Assembly: GCA_018335585.1 (NCBI GenBank)
Contig: JAGXRZ010000040.1
Location: 23,906 to 87,905, forward strand
Length of the DNA stretch: 64,000 nucleotides
Origin: Selenomonadales bacterium
GTDB taxonomy: Bacteria > Bacillota > UBA994
Direction: 5' to 3'
The notes beneath the pieces were generated by a model. It was not told the origin of the DNA. It did not search any database and saw nothing but the letters and a program-made list of their open reading frames with translations. Positions 7,251-61,530 of this stretch are shown here, piece by piece; within the stretch, counting starts at the first letter, position 1, and each line of letters begins with the position of its first letter. The translations under genes were made by a program, and so were the position numbers.

Positions 7251-8792
7251 ATGCAGGGCAAGCACCAGCTCGTAATTATTCTCGATTTTGGCGGCCAATA
7301 CGCGCAGCTTATCGCCCGGCGCACCCGTGAGCTTGGAGTCTATTCTGAGATTTGGTCGCACCAGACGGGAGCTGTGGCCATTAAAGAGGCGCGTCCGCTG
7401 GCCGTTATCTTTTCCGGCGGGCCTAACTCGGTCTACGCCGACCATGCGCCCGGAGTGGACGAAGACATCTTCCACCTCGGCATCCCCATTCTCGGCATCT
7501 GCTACGGCATGCAGCTAATGGCGCGAGCGCTTGGCGGAGAGGTTGCCCCTACGCTACATAAGAGGGAGTACGGCCGCGCCGACGTAGTTGTCACCGAGCA
7601 AAGCGGCATCTTTGCCGGCCTGCCCGACCGTTTCCCGGTGTGGATGAGCCACGGCGATTCCGTAGTTAAACTGCCGCCCGAGTTTGTTAACGCGGCTCAC
7701 ACTGCAAACACGCCGGTCGCAGCCATGTACAGCTCTGCACTCAAAATGGTAGGCACACAGTTTCATCCCGAGGTTACACACGGCGCGTACGGCATGGATA
7801 TGTTAAAGAATTTCCTCTTTGACATTGCCGGGGCGGCAGGCGACTGGGGCATGAAGTCGTTTGTGTCCGAGGCTACTGCGGAAATTCAGCGCCTCGTTGG
7901 GGATAGCCAAGTTATGTGCGGCTTAAGTGGCGGTGTGGACTCGGCGGTGGCGGCAGTGCTTGTGCATCGCGCCGTAGGCCAGAAGCTCACCTCTATCTTT
8001 GTTGACCACGGCATGTTGCGCAAGGGCGAGGCCGAGCAAGTAGTAAAGACGTTTCGCGACCAATTAGGCATGAAATTAATCCACGTCGACGCGAGCGACC
8101 GTTTTCTTGCCAAGCTAGAAGGCATTACCGACCCAGAGCAAAAGCGCAAGATTATCGGGACGGAGTTCATTCGCGTCTTTGAGGAACAAGCCAAAGAAGT
8201 GAGTGCGGCTAAGTTCCTGGTGCAAGGCACGCTCTATCCCGACGTCATCGAGAGCGGTACCGCGACCGCAGCGACGATTAAGACTCATCACAATGTCGGC
8301 GGTCTCCCTAAGGACATGAAGTTTGAGCTGCTTGAGCCGCTTCGTCAGCTTTTTAAGGACGAAGTGCGTGCAATCGGGCGCAAGCTTGGATTGCCCGACG
8401 CCGTGGTGGACAGGCATCCGTTCCCAGGCCCCGGGCTAGCCGTACGCATTGTAGGCGAGATTACGCGGCCAAAGCTCGCCGTGTTGCGCGAGGCCGACCA
8501 CATCGTGCGCGAGGAGGTCGTGCGGGCCGGGCTGCACAAGGAGATATGGCAGTGCTTTGCCGTGCTCCCAGGCGTCCGCACTGTCGGGGTAATGGGGGAT
8601 GAGCGTACATATGCCGAGGTTATCGCGGTGCGCGCGGTGTCGTCGGTCGACGCCATGACCGCCGATTGGTACCGTATGCCGCACGAAGTGCTAGACGTCA
8701 TCTCCCGCCGGATTGTCAACGAAGTAAAGGGCGTAAACCGTGTCGTCTACGACATAACGTCCAAACCGCCCGGAACTATCGAGTGGGAATAA
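7251..8792 (+). CDS. guaA: GMP synthase (glutamine-hydrolysing) GuaA
   Basis: N-terminal class I glutamine amidotransferase plus SGGVDS PP-loop ATP pyrophosphatase motif; C-terminal ...PGTIEWE; TATAAT-like -10 and GGAAGGGGGAAGG RBS upstream. Confidence 0.95.
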
Positions 8793-12066: not shown

Positions 12067-12119
12067 GGGCTCTCCGTTTTCCGCCTTCCTCTTTCCTCCT
12101 CCGCTCGGGGCCGTAAGCT

Positions 12120-12182
12120 GTGAGTTGTGAGTTGTGAGTTATGAGTTGCGAGTTGTGAGTTGTGAGTTGTGAGTTGTGAGCC
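12120..12182. repeat. Heptamer tandem-repeat locus B: [GTGAGTT]x9
   Basis: gtgagtt x3, atgagtt, gcgagtt, gtgagtt x3, gtgagcc; preceded by a CT-rich tract; immediately upstream of the fur-family promoter. Confidence 0.9.
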
Positions 12183-15146: not shown

Positions 15147-15147
15147 C

Positions 15148-15528
15148 GCCAGCCGCCAGCCGCCAGCCGCCAGCCGCCAGCCGCCAGCCGCCAGCCGCCA
15201 GCCGCCAGCCGCCAGCCGCTGGCCGGCAGCGGAGCAGTGACGGGGTGGAAAGGTGGAAAGGTGGAAAAGTTAAAGGGGTAAGGGCTGTGAGCTGTGAGCT
15301 GTGAGGATAGGCTTTAGGCGTTAGGCGCTAGGGGAACGGGCTGTGAGCTTAAGCATTGAGCTGTGCACGAAGAGGAAGCGGATACCGCGGCGACGCGCTC
15401 TACTGGGCACTGAGCACTGGGCACTTCCCTACCAGGAGTCAGGAGCCAGCAGCTAGGAGCCCCTCGTCCTTCACGGAGCACGAAGCACGCTCCCTACTAG
15501 GATCCAGTAGCCAGTAGCCAGCCGCCCT
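15148..15528. repeat. Heptamer tandem-repeat locus C (~380 bp mosaic array)
   Basis: Blocks [GCCAGCC]x10, [GGTGGAAA]x3, [GTGAGCT]x3, [TAGGCNN]x3, [CTGGGCA/CTGAGCA]x3, [CAGGAGN]x4, [AGCACGN]x3, [CCAGTAG]x2; fills the whole interval between the leader terminator and the purB RBS. Confidence 0.9.
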
Positions 15529-23224: not shown

Positions 23225-23920
23225 GTGACACAACACTTCCCCAAGCGACAAGCGACAAGCGACAAGCGACATACGCCAAGCGACAAGCGACATCCCCCCC
23301 CCTTACGCCTTGCCGTCCTAGTCTCAGGCGGCGGAACTACTTTGCAGGGGCTAATAGACGCCATAGCGGCAGGCTCGCTCGGCGCGGAAATCGCCTTGGT
23401 CGTCAGTTCGCGGCGCGATGCTTTCGCCCTTGAGCGCGCGCGCCGCTCCGACATTCCTACCTGCGTACTTAGCAGGCGCGCTTTCACAACGCCCGAGCAA
23501 CACGATGCGGCCCTCGCCGGGCTACTGCAGCAACACCAAGTTGACCTCGTCGTCTTAGCGGGCTACTTGCTGCCCATAGGCCAAGCGACGCTAAGTGCGT
23601 TCCCGGGGCGGATTATAAACATTCATCCCAGTCTCCTGCCCGCCTTTGGCGGACGGGGATATTACGGGTCACGCGTACATACCGAAGTTCTGGAGCACGG
23701 CTGTAAGATTACCGGGGCTACCGTGCACTTTGTGGAGGCCGAGCTCGACACAGGACCCATAATTTTGCAGGGAGCCGTAGAAATAGAGGACGACGACACG
23801 AGCGAGTCGCTCGCAGCTAAGGTAGGAGAACTCGAGCGCGAGCTGTACCCAAGAGCCATTCAACTTTTTGCCGACGGCAAGCTCCGGCAAGTCGGGCGCA
23901 GGGTAACGATTCTAAAGTGA
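23225..23920 (+). CDS. purN: GAR formyltransferase PurN, with repeat-encoded N-terminal extension
   Basis: Conserved PurN core starts at LRLAVLVSGGG (~23303) and contains the HPSLLP motif. The only in-frame starts (GTG 23201, TTG 23216, GTG 23225) lie upstream of the heptamer array. ~26 extra residues (TQHFPKRQATSDKRHTPSDKRHPPP) are therefore translated from the CAAGCGA repeats and a C9 tract. Confidence 0.8.
   Translation: MTQHFPKRQATSDKRHTPSDKRHPPPLRLAVLVSGGGTTLQGLIDAIAAGSLGAEIALVVSSRRDAFALERARRSDIPTCVLSRRAFTTPEQHDAALAGLLQQHQVDLVVLAGYLLPIGQATLSAFPGRIINIHPSLLPAFGGRGYYGSRVHTEVLEHGCKITGATVHFVEAELDTGPIILQGAVEIEDDDTSESLAAKVGELERELYPRAIQLFADGKLRQVGRRVTILK
23242..23302. repeat. Heptamer tandem-repeat locus D: [CAAGCGA]x4, catacgc, [CAAGCGA]x2, then cat+C9, inside the purN 5' coding region
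   Basis: Copy number taken from the ORF-track translation (KRQATSDKRHTPSDKRHPPP), which requires four plus two units followed by nine C. Confidence 0.8.
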
Positions 23921-28399: not shown

Positions 28400-28423
28400 A
28401 CCTACGTTGAGGAGGTGTGGGTC

Positions 28424-29494
28424 GTGAACGAGCCAAAATTACCTATGTTGCCGCCTCGTGCCGATCTGGAAAGCAGGGCGGCACTTAAGCAGTTGGCCAG
28501 GGCTAACCGCGCTTTAGCTGAACTAAAAGGTTATGCGAGTACGATTCCTAATCAACATATGTTGATTAATGCGGTCATGATTAAGGAGGCCAAGGATAGT
28601 TCAGCTATCGAAAACATAATAACTACACACGACGACCTCTATCGGGCGATGAGTAACGCTGGTAAAGCGAGTATCGCCGCTAAGGAAGTCGTCAGCTATA
28701 GGGAAGCCTTATGGCATGGCTATCAATCGGTCAGAGCAAGGCAAGTGCTCACAACCTCGATGATCATCGAAATCCAAGAAATGATAGAGAAGAATACTGC
28801 TGGTTTAAGGAAGTTGCCTGGAACAGTCTTGCGCAACGAAGCTACTGGTGAGATCGTTTATACTCCACCATCTACCGAGCACGACATTAAACAACTACTG
28901 GCAAATCTAGAGACATACATCAATGAAGACGACGATGATGTAGATCATCTGATTAAGCTCGCGGTCCTGCATTACCAATTTGAAGTTATCCATCCTTTTT
29001 ATGATGGCAATGGGCGCACCGGCAGGATAGTCAACGTCCTGTATCTAGTCTTGAAAGGCCTGCTTGAGAGCCCGGTACTCTATCTGAGTAGTTTTATTAT
29101 CAGGAACAAGCCTGCCTATTACCGTCTGTTACAGGAAGTGCGCACGCATGACAACTGGGAAGAATGGATTCTATACATTCTGACTGGCATAGAACAGACT
29201 GCTGCGGAGACCTTGTTCTTGATAAGAAAGATCAATCAAGAAGCAGAAGCAATGAGCGCAGAGATTCAGGCTAGGCTGCCCAAGATATATTCACAAGAAC
29301 TGATGAGTCTGCTTTTCTATGAGTTCTATACTAAGACCCACTATATAGAGAAGGGCTTGGCGGTAACCAGAAAGACAGCCGTTAGCTACCTATCAGCGTT
29401 AGAGAGGGAAGGCTTTTTGAGCTCAGAAAGAATCGGCAAAGAGCGCATCTACCTCAACCGGAGACTCTACGATTTGGTGAGGGCGGGGCAATAA
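28424..29494 (+). CDS. fic: Fic/Doc family protein, class II (N-terminal inhibitory helix), C-terminal winged HTH
   Basis: Canonical HPFYDGNGRTGR Fic motif; SSAIEN matches the [ST]xxxE[GN] inhibitory motif N-terminal of the Fic core; gene is visibly AT-richer than its flanks; GAGGAGG RBS 8 nt before GTG 28424. Confidence 0.85.
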   Translation: MNEPKLPMLPPRADLESRAALKQLARANRALAELKGYASTIPNQHMLINAVMIKEAKDSSAIENIITTHDDLYRAMSNAGKASIAAKEVVSYREALWHGYQSVRARQVLTTSMIIEIQEMIEKNTAGLRKLPGTVLRNEATGEIVYTPPSTEHDIKQLLANLETYINEDDDDVDHLIKLAVLHYQFEVIHPFYDGNGRTGRIVNVLYLVLKGLLESPVLYLSSFIIRNKPAYYRLLQEVRTHDNWEEWILYILTGIEQTAAETLFLIRKINQEAEAMSAEIQARLPKIYSQELMSLLFYEFYTKTHYIEKGLAVTRKTAVSYLSALEREGFLSSERIGKERIYLNRRLYDLVRAGQ

Positions 29495-29495
29495 G

Positions 29496-30515
29496 ATGAA
29501 CTTCACAAAAATGCACGGCTTAGGAAACGACTTTATCGTCGTCGATATGTTTGACGGGATGGAAATTCTCAAGCCGCATGGTGTTGCGCGCGCTATCTGC
29601 CACCGCCACTTTGGCGTGGGCGCTGATGGGCTGGTGCTAGTCCACCCGTCTGAGCGCGCCGATTGTCGCATGCAAATCTTTAATTCCGACGGCAGCGAGG
29701 CCGAGTCTTGCGGCAACGCCTTGCGCTGTGTGGCGCGGTTTATGCAGCTTAAAGGTAGGGTGCAGGGCACTGCCGTCCGCGTGGAGGCGTTAGCCGGCGT
29801 CTACAGCGCTGAGCTTGTGCCTGCGGCGCACGGCGAGACGCTTGTCAAAGTCAACATGGGTGCGCCATTGCTTCATCCTGCGGCTATCCCAGCCAACGTG
29901 GCAGGCGATGGACCTGTCTTAGACCTGAGTATCTCGACACCCCACGGGGACTTCTCCGGCGTATTAATTAACAGCGGCGTGCCGCATGTCGTCATCTTCG
30001 TCCCGGACCTAGCTGCCTTTGACTTTGTTCCCGCCGGGCAGGCCATTGAGAAGCATCCGCTCTTCCCGGCCGGCATTAACGTAGATTTTGTGCAAGTTAT
30101 TAGCCGCGACTATTTAAAGGTGCTGGTGTGGGAGCGCGGCGCAGGCGCGACGCTAGCCTGCGGCACGGGAGCCGCTGCCGTGGCTGTGGCCGCTAACCTT
30201 ACCGGGCGCGCCGACCGCCGCCTAACGGTAGAGCTGCCGGGTGGTGAGCTCTATATGGAGTGGGACGAAAAGACCGGCCATGTCTATATGACCGGTCCCG
30301 CAGCCGTAGCCTTTACAGGGCATGTGCCACTAGCAATGCTTGTAAAATCATATGTCGTTTGTCCCGACCACCTCGACGAAGCCATTGAGGAATTTCTCGA
30401 TGCCTTCGAGTCGCCCCCGGACATCCACCGGCTAAAAGACATTACCTTTACAGAGTGGACGGCGCCTCCTGCCTGCCACTTTTGTTCACGTGCGCCGGAG
30501 TTTTTGGTGGTCTAA
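29496..30515 (+). CDS. dapF: Diaminopimelate epimerase DapF (with ~55-aa C-terminal extension)
   Basis: NSDGSEAESCGNALRC and GTGAAAVAVAA DapF catalytic-Cys regions; ATG 1 nt after the fic stop with no obvious RBS; continues ~55 aa past the usual DapF C-terminus. Confidence 0.85.
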   Translation: MNFTKMHGLGNDFIVVDMFDGMEILKPHGVARAICHRHFGVGADGLVLVHPSERADCRMQIFNSDGSEAESCGNALRCVARFMQLKGRVQGTAVRVEALAGVYSAELVPAAHGETLVKVNMGAPLLHPAAIPANVAGDGPVLDLSISTPHGDFSGVLINSGVPHVVIFVPDLAAFDFVPAGQAIEKHPLFPAGINVDFVQVISRDYLKVLVWERGAGATLACGTGAAAVAVAANLTGRADRRLTVELPGGELYMEWDEKTGHVYMTGPAAVAFTGHVPLAMLVKSYVVCPDHLDEAIEEFLDAFESPPDIHRLKDITFTEWTAPPACHFCSRAPEFLVV

Positions 30516-30995
30516 GTGAAGATTACGATTGTCGCCGTAGGCACCTTAAAAGAAATCTTCTGGCGAGAAGCGGCTAAGGAATACCTAAAGCGCCTTGCCG
30601 GCTATGCGCACGTCGCGATTACAGAGCTTCCCGAATGCCGCGTAGGGCAAGACGCAAACGCCGGCGACGAGGCGCGAGCGCGCGCAGCGGAAGCACAGGC
30701 CATCGCTAAGGCCGTACCCCAAGGGAGCGTGCCAGTCCTTTTGGCCATTAACGGCGAGCAGCGGAGCTCCGAGCAATGGGCCGAATTTTTCGCCGCAGAG
30801 CAACTCGCGTCGCGCTCACATCTCACCTTTATAGTCGGCGGCTCGACCGGCGTCGCCGACAGCGTGAAATCTTTGTCTCACCACCAGTTCTCCCTCGGCC
30901 CGCTTACTCTTCCCCACCAACTCGCACGCATCGTCCTGCTCGAGCAAATCTACCGCGCGTTTCGCATTCTGCGGAATGAGCCGTACCATAAGTAA
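30516..30995 (+). CDS. rlmH: 23S rRNA (pseudouridine1915-N3)-methyltransferase RlmH
   Basis: 159 aa SPOUT protein ending ...QIYRAFRILRNEPYHK, typical of RlmH; GTG start abuts the dapF stop. Confidence 0.85.
   Translation: MKITIVAVGTLKEIFWREAAKEYLKRLAGYAHVAITELPECRVGQDANAGDEARARAAEAQAIAKAVPQGSVPVLLAINGEQRSSEQWAEFFAAEQLASRSHLTFIVGGSTGVADSVKSLSHHQFSLGPLTLPHQLARIVLLEQIYRAFRILRNEPYHK
30840..30865. repeat. Direct repeat copy 1 (ggctcgaccggcgtcgccgacagcgt), inside rlmH 3' region
   Basis: 21-bp exact (26-bp near-exact) match to 31960-31985. Confidence 0.8.
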
Positions 30996-30996
30996 C

Positions 30997-31030
30997 GGCG
31001 AGCCCTGACAGGACTCGTCATTTTTTCTCT
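30997..31030 (+). terminator. Rho-independent terminator after rlmH
   Basis: Imperfect stem ggcgagccctg / caggactcgtc followed by ATTTTTTCTCTT. Confidence 0.55.
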
Positions 31031-31148
31031 TGTAGGCTATATTCTCCCTACACATTCAGCTCAGTTGAAGATACTTACTGCTATTGCGTTCTAGAGAAGG
31101 GAAATAGTAAGCCTTCGACGAATAGAGCTTTGATAGGGAGGTGTTGTG

Positions 31149-31943
31149 ATGGAAGCTAAGTGGAAGCGCGACGCCATCATACGCTACAGTGCGGTCGTAT
31201 GTATTGCGGCTCTAGTCATGTCTAATGTCTGGTTGATGATTAAGGTAAACGATCTTATACGTGCGATTGGTTCTTTGCCGAGGCATATTCCGAGTCCTAC
31301 CACCTACGTCAACCTCAGCCCCTTGTATACAGGGGTTGTTGACGAGCGTGTTCTGATGGTCTCGGAAACGATGGGCGAAAAACTAATAGTTAGATACAAC
31401 TTCACCCTCACGGAACGAATTCCCGGTTACGTCTTAGTTGTCCGCTTTAGAGCAAGTCAGACAGCCGCTTGGGAACAAGTTCGCCCCGCGCCTCTCTACG
31501 GGCTGGAATACGAAGCCTTCCTTCACGTGAATCCGGCTCTCAGCTATGAGTACCAAGTTGTTCAAATGCTTGGAGACCAAGTCATGAGGGCCACCACCCC
31601 AGGCTTCATCAAAGTTGGTGAATGGGTGGGGACCTCCACCTTAAACATCGTGCGGTCCGGTTATCCCAACGAACGTAAGGTGCGAGTCGCTGTGTACCAG
31701 CCGCAATTTTCGGCGCTTAGAGCTTGGCAGGTAGATAAGGTCACTATCAAGCTCGACAATGCGCCTGAGGCAGTCGTTCTCGAAATGTTTCGCGGCGATC
31801 TAACCGGTTACAAGTTCGATGAAACAGTCTACCAGGCAGCTAGAGCGGTGACAGTCACCGCCTACTACGGGGATGGCGAGACCCGTAGTGTGACATTCGA
31901 CCCGCACAACCATTTCGAGCAACCGATAATAAGACGCGATTAG
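31149..31943 (+). CDS. Hypothetical membrane-anchored exported protein
   Basis: N-terminal hydrophobic anchor (YSAVVCIAALVMSNVWLMI) then ~230-aa domain with no recognisable motif; AGGGAG RBS; AT-richer than core genome. Confidence 0.55.
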   Translation: MEAKWKRDAIIRYSAVVCIAALVMSNVWLMIKVNDLIRAIGSLPRHIPSPTTYVNLSPLYTGVVDERVLMVSETMGEKLIVRYNFTLTERIPGYVLVVRFRASQTAAWEQVRPAPLYGLEYEAFLHVNPALSYEYQVVQMLGDQVMRATTPGFIKVGEWVGTSTLNIVRSGYPNERKVRVAVYQPQFSALRAWQVDKVTIKLDNAPEAVVLEMFRGDLTGYKFDETVYQAARAVTVTAYYGDGETRSVTFDPHNHFEQPIIRRD

Positions 31944-31959
31944 GAATAGGCGGTGGGAC

Positions 31960-31985
31960 GGCCTGACCGGCGTCGCCGACAGCGT
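31960..31985. repeat. Direct repeat copy 2 (ggcctgaccggcgtcgccgacagcgt)
   Basis: Matches 30840-30865; together they bracket the rlmH 3' end plus the hypothetical gene 31149-31943. Confidence 0.8.
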
Positions 31986-32041
31986 TTTGCGATCATGTCC
32001 CCGCTCAATACGGGGTGTGTTCCGGAAGGAGTCTTGGATTA

Positions 32042-32773
32042 ATGAAGAACAGCGACATTCTTGAGGATGTTTCTTGTCTGACTGCGAAGGCTGTTGCTCA
32101 CTATTGGGGAACGCGAACAACGCAGAGACAGAAACAAGAACATAGCGGTAAGATCGACCAGGGCCTACGCAGCGCAGTAACCGGAGGAGCCCAGATGGAC
32201 GGTTTCATTGATCTGGTTGTTGAACTAGTAGTGCGAGCCGGAATCCCTGAACGATGCATATTTAGAAAGAAGTCTGTTGAGCTCCCCGGCTACTTTAGGC
32301 CAACCAAAGAGTGGGATCTACTTGTTGTTAAAGAACAGACTTTGGTTGCTGCAGTTGAAGCTAAGTCACAGGTGGGCCCTTCATTCGGTAACAACTTTAA
32401 CAATCGAACTGAGGAAGCGCTAGGTAGCGCGGTTGATCTCTGGACTGCCTATCGAGAGAATCTTTATCTATCAAGTCCTCAACCGTTCTTAGGTTTCCTC
32501 TTCATGCTGGAAGACTGCAAGGCCTCGAACAGACCTGTCATGGTTCAGGAACCGCATTTCGAGGTTGCCAAGGAGTTTATCGGGGCGTCCTATAAGCGCA
32601 GATACGAGTTGCTTTGCCGAAAACTAGTCCTTGAAAGGCACTACACAGCCTCCGCATTTCTCGTATCGTCAACTGACAGAGGTAGTGCAGGAACCTTTAC
32701 CGTACCGGCGGAGGATCTATCTGTTGAGCGTTTCGCTAGAGTGTTAGTCAGCCATCTCGGAGCATTTGTATGA
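32042..32773 (+). CDS. Type II restriction endonuclease-like protein (PD-(D/E)xK fold, BamHI/BglII-like)
   Basis: WDLLVV...VEAKSQ acidic/EAK block and SFGNNFNNRTEEALG resembling the BamHI catalytic region; directly coupled (ATGA overlap) to a DNA methyltransferase; GGAAGGAG RBS before ATG 32042. Confidence 0.5.
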   Translation: MKNSDILEDVSCLTAKAVAHYWGTRTTQRQKQEHSGKIDQGLRSAVTGGAQMDGFIDLVVELVVRAGIPERCIFRKKSVELPGYFRPTKEWDLLVVKEQTLVAAVEAKSQVGPSFGNNFNNRTEEALGSAVDLWTAYRENLYLSSPQPFLGFLFMLEDCKASNRPVMVQEPHFEVAKEFIGASYKRRYELLCRKLVLERHYTASAFLVSSTDRGSAGTFTVPAEDLSVERFARVLVSHLGAFV

Positions 32774-33687
32774 AGCCAGTACAGACGACGCACAGGCTTG
32801 TCAATGGCGACGCACGAGATCTCTCATTCCTCAGTGATGCGTCTGTCCATCTGGTGGTAACTTCGCCCCCCTACTGGAATCTCAAGCGGTATAACGAGAG
32901 CCCCGGTCAGATGGGCCACATACAAGATTATGAGACGTTTCTCCTAGAGCTTGAGAAAGTGTGGAAGCAGGTGTACCGTGTCCTAGTTCCGGGCGGTCGC
33001 CTGGTGTGCGTTGTTGGCGACGTCTGTGTTTCTAGGCGCGAGTTCGGACGCCACTTAGTTTTCCCGCTCCATGCGGACATTGCAGTTATCTGCCGCCGTA
33101 TGGGGTTTGACAACCTTAACCCGATAATTTGGCATAAGATTACCAACGCTTCTTATGAAGTTGCCAATGGCTCGAAATTCCTCGGCAAGCCGTATGAGCC
33201 GAATGCGATTATCAAGAATGACATTGAGTTCATCTTGATGCAACGCAAACCTGGAGGTTATAGGAAGCCAAGCGAGTCGCAACGAGAGGCAAGCAAGATC
33301 AGCAAAGAAGACTTTGACCGCTGGTTTCAACAAATGTGGCACATTCCCGGCGCGTCAACAAAGCACCATCCAGCACCGTATCCATTAGAGCTCGCAGCGC
33401 GTCTGGTGCAAATGTTCTCATTTACCGAAGACACAGTGCTCGACCCCTTTTGTGGCTCCGGCACCACTATGGTCGCCGCACTAAGGGCCGGACGTAACAG
33501 CATTGGGATTGAGATTGACCCCCTCTATTGCCGCATGGCGGCGCAGTATCTAAAGGCTGAGAGCAACAACCTGTTCTCTGCTAACAGCACACTGCTCTTT
33601 GAGAGGTCTTCCGTTGAAGCTACCGGAGCCCTAAGAGAGGACGATGCCCTTTATGAAGTACGCGCTGCCAAGAAGAGACTCGAATAG
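32770..33687 (+). CDS. DNA methyltransferase, beta-class (motif IV SPPY before motif I DPFCGSGTT), probably N4-cytosine
   Basis: TSPPYWN (motif IV) near N-terminus and VLDPFCGSGTT (motif I) near C-terminus; this order defines beta-group amino-MTases, and SPPY is usual for N4C enzymes. Confidence 0.8.
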   Translation: MKPVQTTHRLVNGDARDLSFLSDASVHLVVTSPPYWNLKRYNESPGQMGHIQDYETFLLELEKVWKQVYRVLVPGGRLVCVVGDVCVSRREFGRHLVFPLHADIAVICRRMGFDNLNPIIWHKITNASYEVANGSKFLGKPYEPNAIIKNDIEFILMQRKPGGYRKPSESQREASKISKEDFDRWFQQMWHIPGASTKHHPAPYPLELAARLVQMFSFTEDTVLDPFCGSGTTMVAALRAGRNSIGIEIDPLYCRMAAQYLKAESNNLFSANSTLLFERSSVEATGALREDDALYEVRAAKKRLE

Positions 33688-33717
33688 GATGCGCTGTCCG
33701 CCACAGCGATGGTGGGC

Positions 33718-34116
33718 TTACTTTACCGCCACCGTCTTCGTCCAGCCGGTGAAACCTAGCACGTACCGCACTACTACCGCCCGCCCGTCCTTCTGTAGAT
33801 AACCAACCAACAGCACTCGGCGGTCCTCATCGTGTAGGATAAGTGGCGGAAACCGCGTCGTTTCCCGATACTCCCTTTGAGCGTCTTGAATGGCTGCATG
33901 CATTAAGGCCTCTCCTGTTAGACCTGCCACATGGAGTGTCGGCATCTGGCTCCAGTTTGTGACAACCTCGTACCTGCCGAGGTCAATTTCGTGCTTTTCC
34001 ACGAGCTGGCGGTGCGCTTCCCTGACCTGGTCCTCCGTAGGCTCTAGGGTGTTAGGAGCGATTGGGCTGCCGAGGTCAGGAGCGGCGGCATCCCACTCTG
34101 GCAAAGAGAACCCCAA
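33718..34116 (-). CDS. Hypothetical protein (132 aa)
   Basis: Open frame convergent with the MTase; no recognisable motif; overlaps the protease-like fragment by ~40 bp. Confidence 0.35.
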   Translation of the reverse strand: MGFSLPEWDAAAPDLGSPIAPNTLEPTEDQVREAHRQLVEKHEIDLGRYEVVTNWSQMPTLHVAGLTGEALMHAAIQDAQREYRETTRFPPLILHDEDRRVLLVGYLQKDGRAVVVRYVLGFTGWTKTVAVK

Positions 34117-34626
34117 TCAGCTTGCCGTTCTGCACGATTGGGCTACCGCTCATGCCTGGCTCAATTCTATCCTTCGCATGTAGCGGAGATACGAGTAGCA
34201 ACTGCTCGCCGCGGAACTGCATATACCCGACTACCCTTACCGTAAAAGGGCCAGCAGCTCCCGGGAGAACTGTGGCAACCTCTCCCACAACGATGTCCGC
34301 GGTGCCGCCTAGCCGAATAAGTTCCGTGTTGACGCGGGTTCCTTTAGGCATGCCCAGTGTAACGCCCTGGTCGCTATTGACCAGCACCTTGACATTGCAG
34401 AAGATGACGTTGTCGCTCTCTGCCCGCCAAGTCCGACTTCTCGGTCCGGGGCCTGCACTTCCCAGTAGGGAGAAAGCGTTGGATCTGTGGCCATAGATAG
34501 TGCCATGCTCCACCCAAGCAGCAGAAGCCCTAAGACGTTAAGGCCAACGAAAGCCAGCACGAGCTGAGTAGTTCTTCGCATGAAACACCACCCCCAAACG
34601 ACTGAAGTGCATGTAATATATTCCAC
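34076..34626 (-). pseudogene. SpoIVB-like (peptidase S55) serine peptidase fragment, apparently frameshifted/truncated
   Basis: Two overlapping same-strand ORFs in different frames. 34309-34626 encodes a signal/TM segment (MRRTTQLVLAFVGLNVLGLLLLGW). 34076-34513 encodes EPGMSGSPIVQNGKLIGV, matching the SpoIVB catalytic-Ser block (GMSGSPIIQNGKVIG), but ends ~20 aa later. No single intact frame. Confidence 0.4.
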
Positions 34627-34721
34627 TCACAGGCGGATAACTCCTTCATAATTAACAAACAGCTCCTCTACGCCCAATAGGCATATCCCGTGTCATTGTC
34701 CGCCTTAAACACAACCCCCTG

Positions 34722-34756
34722 CAGTAATCTCCTGCAGGGGGGTCTGTTATCTTGAT
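34722..34756 (-). terminator. Hairpin terminator downstream of the FMN-binding gene
   Basis: ccccctgcag..ctgcaggggg 10-bp stem; on the minus strand followed by TTGTGTTTAA. Confidence 0.4.
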
Positions 34757-38187: not shown

Positions 38188-42562
<4,375 letters not shown>

Positions 42563-55951: not shown

Positions 55952-56137
55952 TTGTGAGGACCTCCCTACAAAATCTCTTTGCTATTTGTCACGATACTAT
56001 TGTGCACCGAGTTCGTCCGATTTTCAAGGACTTTGCGAAATAAATATCAATAGATGTGAAATAAATAGCAGACAATACATCAACCCCGGGTTCGTGTCGC
56101 CGACAGTGCCAAAGTAGAGATTGCCCGAAGTCCGCGT

Positions 56138-61229: not shown

Positions 61230-61530
61230 GCGCCAGCCGCCGGGAGAGATTGCACTTCGCACTTGGCACTTAGCACTTAGTGGAGGACGAGGGGTTGCTG
61301 GCTGCTGGCTCCTGGCTCCTGGTAGAGAAGGTGCCCAGTGCCCAGTGCCCAGTAGAGCGCGTCGCAGCGGTTTCGGTTTCCCTTTGACCTTTCCACCCTC
61401 CATGCTCACAACTCACAACTCACAACTCACAATTCACAACTCACAAGCGACAAGGGACAAGCGACAAGGGACAAGCGACAAGGGACAAGCGACAAGGGAC
61501 AAGCGACATGCGACAAGCGACAAGCCACCA
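61230..61530. repeat. Heptamer tandem-repeat locus E (~300 bp mosaic array)
   Basis: gccagccgcc, [GCACTTN]x4, [GCTGGCT/GCTCCTG]x4, [GTGCCCA]x3, ggtttcggtttcc, cctttccacc, [CACAACT]x5, then alternating [CAAGCGA/CAAGGGA]x11; spans from the fRMsr stop to 80 bp before nrdD. Confidence 0.9.

Follow-up and report, generated by a model that had tools for sequence, protein, structure and literature searches.

The window, by which we mean the whole 64,000-nucleotide stretch of Selenomonadales DNA analyzed here, contains two exact copies of a 21-bp sequence in direct orientation, the first inside the housekeeping gene rlmH and the second just beyond the next gene. This arrangement raises the question of whether the two copies are the ends of an integrated element or the trace of some other rearrangement, and an initial reading of the sequence alone had left the choice between an attL/attR-type duplication and a recombination scar. 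The main value of the present analysis is a corrected annotation, in that this att-like exact repeat touching rlmH is no att pair; strain comparison resolves the locus into a native rlmH, a 3.7-kb defense-type islet in the terminator between rlmH and a gene for an FMN_bind protein, and a restriction-modification (R-M) cassette inside the islet. The features are as follows.

30516–30995, + strand: rlmH, 23S rRNA pseudouridine1915 N3-methyltransferase, SPOUT family, 159 amino acids, intact
30845–30865, + strand: copy 1 of the 21-mer, native rlmH coding sequence and source of the duplication
30997–31037, + strand: intrinsic terminator of rlmH, a hairpin (-11.4 kcal/mol) followed by a T-run; left islet edge
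31058–31958, + strand: hypothetical-gene (hyp) module, promoter region and open reading frame (31146–31943)
31959–31990, + strand: junction seam, ACGGCCT, 21-mer, and TTTGC
31965–31985, + strand: copy 2 of the 21-mer, exact; ectopic patch of rlmH sequence
32042–32773, + strand: type II restriction endonuclease, XhoI/PaeR7I family (Pfam PF04555, 2.5e-89; PADLOC REase_II, 3.6e-89)
32770–33687, + strand: cognate N4/N6 DNA methyltransferase (Pfam PF01555, 9.4e-43; PADLOC MTase_II, 6.2e-66)
33690–33717, + strand: right-hand cassette junction with hairpin GTCCGCCAC..GTGGTGGGC, terminator-like match
33718–34513, - strand: ORF132 and ORF145, split remnants of a 239-residue islet gene of unknown function
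34715–34741, no strand assigned: intact copy of the ancestral bidirectional terminator hairpin (-24 kcal/mol, z = -5.3); right islet edge

The 21-bp Repeat

The repeat, GACCGGCGTCGCCGACAGCGT, is present twice in the window, as first reported, with both copies on the + strand and a start-to-start distance of 1120 nt. It is the longest non-tandem exact direct repeat of the window, the runners-up being 17, 17, and 16 nt, and there is no third copy at three or fewer mismatches in the 64 kb and no further copy elsewhere in ~60 kb of related loci. A match to the 21-mer was found in 0 of 100 shuffled sequences, and a direct repeat of at least 21 nt arose in none of 150 windows simulated with an order-1 Markov chain and in one of 150 simulated with an order-3 chain. 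The original judgment that the repeat is far beyond chance is upheld by these simulations, which put the chance probability at ≤0.7%, and the proximity of the copies, 1.1 kb, makes a chance origin still less likely. The pair recurs in >10 independent assemblies and is therefore not an assembly artefact.

Upstream of the 21-mer the match between the copies is weak, with five of eight bases identical (GGCGGCTC versus GACGGCCT), giving 26 identical positions of 29 for the 21-mer plus its upstream flank. Downstream the identity is zero, with TTTGC following copy 2 and GAAAT... following copy 1. The shorter related core that had been noticed near 56.1 kb does exist (GTCGCCGACAG at 56096, + strand) but, like a 13-mer sub-match at position 971 of the minus strand, it is at or near noise level; counts of such 11–13-nt sub-cores are near expectation.

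rlmH and Copy 1

The RlmH protein matches Pfam PF02590 (SPOUT_MTase, 6.6e-48) over its full length. It is 86% and 72–73% identical to the proteins of relatives with an empty site (see below), and the nearest RlmH among GTDB representative genomes is only 56% identical. Copy 1 is within the coding sequence, where the sequence-only reading had placed it; it comprises the third base of codon 110 and codons 111–117 (TGVADSV) and is located 130 nt upstream of the stop codon. In comparison with the empty-site contig L109, rlmH is 87% identical at the nucleotide level 3' of copy 1 and 82% identical in its 5' part, and the 3' end beyond copy 1 is the native one. An apparently chimeric RlmH, P0134, was rejected as a homopolymer frameshift in one assembly. 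A CTCGAG site is present within rlmH at 30939, 74 nt from copy 1.

The bases of copy 1 are largely kept in relatives, with 19 of 21 in L109, L123, and L087 and 20 of 21 in L107, L108, and L111; 19 of 21 are retained in relatives down to 73% RlmH protein identity. This conservation indicates that the direction of copying was from rlmH to the junction. The substitutions in copy 1 are G18A in L107, L108, and L111 and C7T with C10T in L087. Copy 2 retains the ancestral bases where copy 1 has diverged in these two lineages, and it is invariant in all W-type assemblies, which carry both hyp and the R-M cassette, even in those with a substitution in copy 1. The two copies therefore evolve independently and are neither homogenized nor used.

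Organization of the Islet

In the related contigs L109 and L121, the FMN_bind gene directly follows rlmH and represents the empty site of the whole islet, which relative to these strains extends from ~31038 to ~34715 (3.7 kb). An empty site in relatives, which had been proposed as a check, was thus found for the islet as a whole, but its edges are not at the 21-mers. The rlmH terminator aligns with the L109 spacer (TTTTTCTCT-GCAGG) to ~31037 and represents the left copy, now degenerate, of the hairpin ancestrally located between rlmH and FMN_bind; the hairpin at 34715–34741 is homologous to the one located 20 nt after rlmH in L109 and L121. The resulting duplication of ~30 nt around the islet (31003–31037 versus 34715–34745) is degenerate and suggestive only. 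The islet region is strain-variable and lower in G+C, and among W-type strains the islet is near-invariant, with 3 SNPs in 3 kb. A recently exchanged tract has its SNP boundary at 31005/31006 and not at copy 1.

The hyp open reading frame encodes 265 residues with an N-terminal transmembrane helix and a β-rich domain. The protein is lineage-restricted, with only three protein clusters among 5.8 billion proteins, and has no match in Pfam or PADLOC. A low-confidence structure model (pLDDT 61) predicts a transmembrane helix and a β-sandwich with only weak Ig/FN3-like matches, and the idea that hyp might be a cryptic recombinase was rejected on this model.

The endonuclease and methyltransferase genes, which overlap by 4 nt, are predicted from their sequences to form a type II system of the PaeR7I/XhoI family. 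Homologs of the endonuclease number in the thousands at 71–78% identity and are found in unrelated phyla. The CTCGAG sequence is not depleted (16 observed versus 17.6 expected). The junctions of the cassette were deduced by aligning both window junctions with the empty site of L086, AAGTAGGCGCAAGGTGGGTG, and correspond to an insertion of 1.76 kb. GGTGGG at the right junction repeats GTGGG at 31953–31957, either as a 5-nt target duplication or as microhomology, and the presence of this motif at the two junctions is typical of illegitimate joining. The fold of the right-junction hairpin is not significant. Two other candidates for cassette termini were rejected. Putative terminal inverted repeats, GTCGCCGACAGCG and GTGGCGGACAGCG, match at 11 of 13 positions, but they are asymmetric, being 14 nt and 1–2 nt from the ends; the right member is explained by the hairpin after the methyltransferase gene, and the likeness is unproven and post hoc. 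A target-site duplication, GAATAGG, was discounted since its right copy is the stop region of the methyltransferase gene itself and is also found in L092.

Beyond the cassette, the homolog of ORF132 and ORF145 in L111 is a single 239-residue open reading frame; L111 lacks 76 nt (34073–34148) that lie between 12-nt direct repeats. This gene was considered as a conserved partner of hyp and rejected because the pairing is seen in L086 only and not in L085.

Strain Breakpoints and the Junction Seam

Two groups of relatives define the joint between hyp and the R-M genes. In L086, a single 1.2-kb contig, there are no R-M genes and hyp directly adjoins the C-terminal end of the ORF132 homolog; homology to the window extends from 31058/31135 to 31952 (31958 at most) and resumes at 33721–33871, placing the breakpoints at 31952–58/33706–20. 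In the four assemblies L087–L090, the last rlmH codon (159) and an A are joined directly to position 31991 and the R-M genes (breakpoints 30992/31991), with loss of the rlmH stop codon, the terminator, the hyp gene, and copy 2. The closest other R-M loci, L091 and L092, have nothing in common with the window upstream of 32057.

Between the hyp and R-M modules is a seam of 32–38 nt (about 31953/59–31990) that occurs only in strains that have both, and 31959–31990 is the only stretch missing from both the R-M-less L086 and the hyp-less L087–L090. Copy 2 is intergenic, as originally described, 21 nt after the hyp stop codon and 56 nt before the ATG of the endonuclease gene, and it falls exactly in this seam between independently varying modules. 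Of the two initial proposals, the recombination scar is thereby borne out, and the evidence supports copy 2 being such a scar. No variant breakpoint was found at 30845–65 or 31965–85 among L086, L087–90, L109, and L121, and the segment bracketed by the repeat (30866–31985) never behaves as a unit in related strains. As to the order of events, either the W-type arrangement came first and was followed by deletion, or an S-type arrangement came first and hyp was re-inserted.

Origin of Copy 2

On balance, copy 2 is probably an ectopic patch derived from rlmH by templated filling or short-patch illegitimate recombination at the hyp/R-M joint, which we infer to be its most likely origin. A PaeR7I/XhoI-type cassette would have been joined illegitimately to the 3' spacer of hyp; both are part of the islet that interrupts the terminator separating rlmH from the FMN_bind gene. 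During break repair or replication at the joint, a strand end or an rlmH-derived single strand may have annealed via microhomology, so that the joint acquired a copy of ~21–29 nt of rlmH from a distance of 1.1 kb on that molecule. The abrupt end of the identity, with 21 of 21 positions, then five of eight upstream and none downstream, favors a discrete patch over a decayed long duplication. Against this, filler of >20 nt is rarely documented at bacterial junctions, and the breakpoints of the hyp-less strains coincide precisely with the rlmH stop codon and with a point 5 nt beyond copy 2, which hints at formerly longer rlmH homology at copy 2. The pre-event allele, a hyp/R-M junction with no patch, was not found among >20 related contigs.

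Templated junction insertions are described for synthesis-dependent MMEJ (PMC2943611). In SPDIR, a process that experiments in Acinetobacter baylyi defined from intragenic microindels, 3 to ~100 bp of intragenomic DNA are pasted at ectopic sites via microhomologies (10.1101/2023.11.22.568220). Copy 2 resembles the SPDIR products in that a 21–29-nt stretch with abrupt ends matches an ectopic intragenomic sequence, here 1.1 kb upstream, and that there is no mobile-element machinery. It differs in being located in a module seam at the joint of a 1.76-kb cassette insertion, and the flanking microhomologies that are diagnostic of SPDIR need the pre-event allele. That the patch is a naturally fixed SPDIR or template-switch event during capture of the R-M cassette, perhaps triggered by cleavage of the chromosome by the cassette itself, for which rlmH offers the CTCGAG site at 30939, is a tentative proposal that we regard as possible rather than probable. 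If it were true, the locus would be a rare natural link between R-M acquisition and short-patch templated mutagenesis, with the source, the product, and both of the "parental" arrangements that flank it still present in wild strains. The broader templated-patch reading, if true, would make the locus a clean case, found in nature, of short-patch copying to an ectopic site at the joint of an R-M insertion, and would also illustrate how R-M cassettes that lack mobility genes move and rearrange their surroundings. The patch is ordinary in kind and is a passive scar. It has no role that could be detected in recombination, as a promoter or terminator, or as RNA, and its sole likely consequence is a low-rate slippage deletion that would truncate rlmH.

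A different and rather unlikely origin is from a longer duplicate of the rlmH 3' end, extending from the 21- or 29-mer to the last codon, of which copy 2 would be all that is left. Such a fragment could have arisen by insertion with long target duplication or have been carried as a flank from an earlier rlmH-adjacent location, and it would once have flanked the cassette or the hyp segment. Homologous recombination between rlmH and the fragment would then account for the hyp-less strains and their stopless fusion of rlmH to the R-M leader, and an internal deletion in the lineage of the window would have trimmed the fragment to 21–29 nt. L087–L090 keep rlmH exactly through codon 159 but lose the stop codon, and on the right their breakpoint is located 5 nt beyond copy 2; these two coincidences would be expected had rlmH homology formerly continued from copy 2 as far as the R-M leader. 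Mobile cassettes made up of R-M units are also documented (Furuta, Abe & Kobayashi 2010, PMC2853133), and they include cases of "insertion with long target duplication," which are recognized by R and M genes, an insert of <20 kb, and a target duplication of >30 bp on both sides (PMC2853133). The cassette described here is similar to these in having an R and M pair and no mobility gene, in being present or absent between close relatives in a variable region, and in its insertion into a spacer with a short duplication or microhomology (GTGGG); the degenerate ~30-nt duplication of the target terminator hairpin around the whole islet is a further likeness. The 21-mers themselves, however, are shorter than 30 bp, both are upstream of the R-M genes and so do not flank them, and one is inside a gene 1.1 kb away and not at the target site. 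In addition, no rlmH similarity is left downstream of copy 2, an extra deletion is needed that ends on the right just where the duplicate ends, and no strain among >20 contigs has a longer fragment.

It is considerably less likely that copy 2 is a functional cis element, such as an R-M operator or promoter or a protein-binding palindrome, whose identity to rlmH is convergent or co-opted. Its position 56 nt upstream of the endonuclease gene, its overlapping palindromes (CGGCG-T-CGCCG and GTCG-C-CGAC), its invariance across W-type strains, and a palindrome at the opposite cassette end that loosely resembles it, CGCTGTCCGCCACAGCG, are consistent with such a function. However, the R-M operon of the hyp-less strains is intact and lacks copy 2, related R-M loci also lack it, and the near-invariance of the islet makes the invariance of copy 2 uninformative. 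Copy 2 has no σ70-like promoter, terminator match, Rfam match, or fold signal (z = 0.34).

The attL/attR reading, in which the copies would bound a site-specific integrative element consisting of the rlmH 3' end with hyp, or of the islet, is rejected as highly improbable. It draws on the exactness of the repeat, the location of one copy in a conserved housekeeping gene, and the strain-variable islet of lower G+C. Elements that use att sites inside coding genes, such as e14 and phage 21 at icd, bring a surrogate 3' end with them, and the displaced one is preserved on the far side of attR. The present locus is like these in that one member of a direct repeat is within a coding region and accessory DNA comes after it, but the 3' end after copy 1 is the native one and nothing rlmH-like is present past copy 2, where the in-frame translation, VLRSCPRSIRGVF..., is not RlmH-like and a replacement rlmH 3' end was therefore rejected. 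The real edges of the islet, after the rlmH stop codon and terminator and at ~34715, are away from the 21-mers, as is the SNP boundary of the exchanged tract, and L086 has hyp yet no 21-mer within three mismatches. Pfam and PADLOC scans identified no integrase, recombinase, or transposase in the open reading frames from 27226 to 47374 or in the strain-specific extra genes.

The reading also draws on rlmH being the classical target of staphylococcal SCC elements, which integrate at the 3' end of this gene (orfX) (PMC4723332). As in staphylococci, a variable accessory or defense islet is immediately downstream of rlmH, and in one strain group a junction is exactly at the rlmH stop codon. In contrast to SCC, the 21-mer is away from the attB position, 130 nt before the stop codon, and the host is of a different lineage. 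No ccrAB or ccrC large serine recombinase genes were found in the islet or in the 15 kb flanking it on each side. The ISS-like sequence at the end of rlmH, GAGCCGTACCATAAGTAA, has no second copy at three or fewer mismatches (ISS as defined in PMC4723332), and TAYCAYAAR occurs only at chance frequency and is absent from the islet borders.

Equally implausible is membership of the 21-mer in a dispersed, genome-wide REP-like family, which the sequence-only reading had named beforehand as the finding that would count against it, or a match by chance: the 21-mer is GC-rich and partly palindromic, has the sub-cores at 971 and 56096, and has 14 exact matches in a metagenome collection, but the available data show two copies in 64 kb and a simulated probability that does not yet count proximity, and the 14 matches are each single-copy, in unrelated high-GC coding contexts whose flanks differ.

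Features of the Repeat Locus

The exact 21-mer GACCGGCGTCGCCGACAGCGT occurs twice in the window, both times on the + strand, with copy 1 inside the rlmH coding sequence and copy 2 1.1 kb downstream, past a hypothetical gene, as the sequence-only reading had placed them. The features concerned are:

30516–30995, rlmH (SPOUT_MTase, 6.6e-48)
30845–30865 (+), copy 1, within rlmH, coding for TGVADSV
31146–31943, hypothetical ORF, 265 aa
31965–31985 (+), copy 2, intergenic
32042–32773, endonuclease gene, XhoI/PaeR7I family
32770–33687, DNA methyltransferase gene, next after the endonuclease gene

Copy 2 lies 21 nt past the stop of the hypothetical ORF and 56 nt ahead of the endonuclease ATG. A low confidence model of the hypothetical protein predicts a TM helix and a β-sandwich, with only weak Ig/FN3-like fold matches. 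Upstream of rlmH, the window and the sister strain L087 encode a diaminopimelate epimerase with a fused C-terminal YyzF-like domain (29496–30515, 339 aa); in the related contigs L109 and L111 a 55-aa YyzF gene is called separately, between dapF and rlmH.

No other non-tandem exact direct repeat in the 64 kb is as long as this pair (those ranking next measure 17, 17, and 16 nt), and direct repeats of at least 21 nt appeared in 0/150 and 1/150 sequences in Markov simulations; the repeat is therefore real and, as first remarked, beyond chance. Its recovery in >10 independent assemblies excludes an assembly artefact. No third copy was found in the window at ≤3 mismatches, and shuffled sequences gave no match at all. 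The related core noted near 56.1 kb is present as an 11-mer, but its count is near expectation, as is that of a 13-mer sub-core at 971 (−). The 14 exact matches in a metagenome collection are each single and unrelated and lie in high-GC contigs, and with two copies in 64 kb a wider repeat family is unlikely.

Original and Derived Copies

The copy 1 stretch retains 19/21 bases in the rlmH genes of L109 (86% protein identity), L123 (73% protein identity), and L087, and 20/21 in L107, L108, and L111. This conservation among relatives shows that copy 1 is native, constrained coding sequence and that copy 2 is derived. Across lineages, copy 1 has changed at three positions; at all of them copy 2 holds the ancestral base, and it is without variation in every strain that carries it. 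The strain comparison gave no sign of homogenization between the copies, which evolve independently.

In a 72% identical relative, L121, rlmH (P0127, 1672–2076) has an in-frame deletion of 25 codons that joins …EQWA to DSV…, equivalent to 30780–30859 of the window and with its right end inside the 21-mer. At the matching ends in the window stands a 5-nt direct repeat, GCCGA, at 30780 and again 75 nt further on at 30855, so this stretch of rlmH seems to be slippage-prone.

Empty Site and Boundaries of the Islet

The source lineage is uncultured and the GTDB representatives are too distant, and four informative arrangements were recovered by protein look-ups. An empty site, whose existence in relatives the sequence-only reading had raised, is present in L109 (81–84% nucleotide identity) and in two remoter relatives, L121 and L122, and it covers the whole islet: only 86–116 nt separate rlmH from the oppositely oriented FMN_bind gene downstream, and the spacer contains a strong hairpin, CCCCTGCAG-TTTTTCTC-TGCAGGGG. 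The window has two copies of this hairpin region: a degenerate one directly 3′ of rlmH (∼31003–31037), now acting as its terminator, and an intact one at 34715–34741. Hairpin copies at both edges, together with the empty-site relatives, identify the segment ∼31038–34715 as an islet inserted into the terminator. Its G + C content is 0.51–0.53, as against 0.59 next door. The flanking sequences (31003–31037 and 34715–34745) appear to form an imperfect ∼30-nt duplication of the ancestral rlmH/FMN_bind terminator hairpin, and this could represent a "long target duplication" for the whole islet.

As far as 31005 the window is separated from L107, L108, and L111 by dense SNPs (64 over 1.9 kb for L108), whereas 31006–34072 contains nearly none (3 in 3.07 kb), a contrast that indicates that strains have recently exchanged the islet horizontally by recombination. 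On the left the exchanged tract ends ∼10 nt past the rlmH stop rather than at copy 1. Relative to the same three contigs, the core genes to the left of this boundary diverge by ∼3–4% and form a mosaic. Within the islet, ORF132 and ORF145 (33718–34513, −) are two overlapping pieces of what is one 239-aa ORF in L111; the 76-nt indel (34073–34148) is bounded by 12-nt direct repeats (34061–34072 and 34137–34148) and is a slippage-type event.

Strain Arrangements and the Junction

The window arrangement (W-type) is found in every contig that codes for an identical hypothetical protein. In L086 (85% nucleotide identity), which lacks the R-M cassette, the hypothetical gene is followed by 21 nt and then the end of the ORF132 homolog. 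Homology to the window covers 31058/31135–31952 and then 33721–33871, and the cassette (∼31953/59 to 33705/11, ∼1.76 kb) is therefore an insertion in a tiny spacer; it has GTGGG (31953–57) on one side and GGTGGG (33711–16) on the other. The 21-mer was not found in L086 at ≤3 mismatches. In four assemblies without the hypothetical gene (L087–L090, 96–98% nucleotide identity), rlmH runs to its last sense codon (30992) and is followed by one A and then by 31991 onward, so that 30993–31990, comprising the stop codon, terminator, hypothetical gene, and copy 2, is missing. In all four, RlmH (9472–10023 in L087) reads through for 24 extra codons, to 183 aa, into the endonuclease gene leader, overlapping its start, and the R-M operon in these strains is probably transcribed from rlmH.

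Of the whole locus, only the seam at 31959–31990 (ACGGCCT, the 21-mer, and TTTGC) is missing from both of these arrangements, and the closest other R-M loci, L091 (87%) and L092 (74% identity), have nothing in common with the window upstream of 32057. Copy 2 therefore belongs to the joint between two independently varying modules, in support of the earlier suggestion of a recombination scar. It matches rlmH at 21/21 positions and at 5/8 upstream, beyond which there is nothing; so abrupt a loss of identity marks it as a discrete patch and argues against a decayed long duplicate. No promoter, terminator, Rfam, or folding signals were found at copy 2.

Origin of Copy 2

The best-supported reading is that copy 2 is a scar of illegitimate recombination. 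As the spacer of the hypothetical-gene module was joined to the R-M leader, the joint would have received a copy of ∼21–29 nt of rlmH, a gene 1.1 kb distant on the same molecule. Synthesis-dependent microhomology-mediated joining reportedly gives rise to templated insertions. In SPDIR, intragenomic single-stranded DNA of 3 to ∼100 bp is pasted at microhomologies (10.1101/2023.11.22.568220). Both are documented processes that would fit the patch.

Two orders of events can be proposed. In the first, the cassette would have entered the gap between the hypothetical and 239-aa genes, giving the W-type, and a 998-bp deletion would then have produced the arrangement without the hypothetical gene. In the second, a primary substitution would have set the R-M genes directly after rlmH, so that the arrangement without the hypothetical gene came first, followed by homology-anchored re-insertion of the rlmH-terminator-hypothetical gene segment with an illegitimate, filler-containing right joint; this order would place the patch exactly at the breakpoint automatically. 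The rlmH terminator of the window shares its ancestry with the spacer of the empty site, so the rlmH-terminator junction is ancestral, which favors the first order without proving it.

As the main rival, a longer duplicated 3′ fragment of rlmH may have left copy 2 as its stump, which would neatly account for the breakpoints of L087–L090, one falling precisely on the stop codon of rlmH and the other 5 nt beyond copy 2. However, no rlmH-like sequence is left downstream of copy 2, an additional, oddly precise deletion would be required, and no strain with a longer rlmH fragment was found among the contigs compared. An attL/attR-type duplication, as originally proposed, was rejected: the 21-mers bound none of the observed strain variants, neither the 27–47 kb region nor the extra genes of particular strains encode an integrase, recombinase, or transposase, and the 3′ end of rlmH is native rather than element-supplied because its identity to the empty-site L109 is 87% after copy 1 and 82% in the 5′ part. 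An SCC-type organization (as defined in PMC4723332) was likewise rejected, for although the islet lies right after rlmH, no ccr gene was found and the terminal sequence of rlmH has no second copy.

The finding adds one more case to a kind of event already known; it is of value because the natural intermediates around an R-M cassette insertion form an unusually complete set. R-M units that are polymorphic for presence or absence without mobility genes were catalogued by Furuta et al. 2010 (PMC2853133), and the present cassette resembles them in both respects. The 21-mer pair falls outside their definition of a "long target duplication", since it measures 21 bp and has both copies on the upstream side of the R-M genes.

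The R-M Cassette and Its Neighborhood

As a type II R-M pair of the PaeR7I/XhoI family the cassette is ordinary: its homologs at 71–78% identity number in the thousands across phyla. The neighborhood is defense-flavored. Upstream of dapF, a Fic gene (28415–29494) encodes a SoFic-type defense protein (PADLOC 6.1e-114). W-type strains have this gene whereas L087 and L109 lack it, which makes it a second strain-variable defense insertion; the gene contains a perfect 20-nt palindrome, TAATCAACATATGTTGATTA (28549–28568). Strains without the hypothetical gene have an extra ATPase_2/DUF234 gene (L087 12741–14120, between window positions 34416 and 34694) that matches the PADLOC candidate defense family PDC-S27 (1.6e-51), and a DUF234 fragment also lies upstream of L091, the R-M locus of 87% identity.

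The XhoI/PaeR7I site CTCGAG is not depleted (16 observed, 17.6 expected); rlmH itself contains one such site, at 30939. The palindromic hexamers ATCGAT (7.2 expected) and TTGCAA (5.7 expected) are absent from the 64 kb, which suggests pressure by other R-M systems.

Intergenic tandem heptamer arrays occur at 2880–2990, 12119–12180, 15147–15425, 23242–23292, 40387–40439, and 61252–61525, with units that include TGTGAGT (×9), CGCCAGC (×12), CAAGCGA (×7), ACAAGCG (×12), GCACTTA, GTGCCCA, and others. Their flanks are partly related as inverted copies (15374–15485 and 61269–61381), and L087 has a heptamer-type element (8267–8432) in place of the SoFic gene; the arrays look like a dispersed heptamer-repeat element family.
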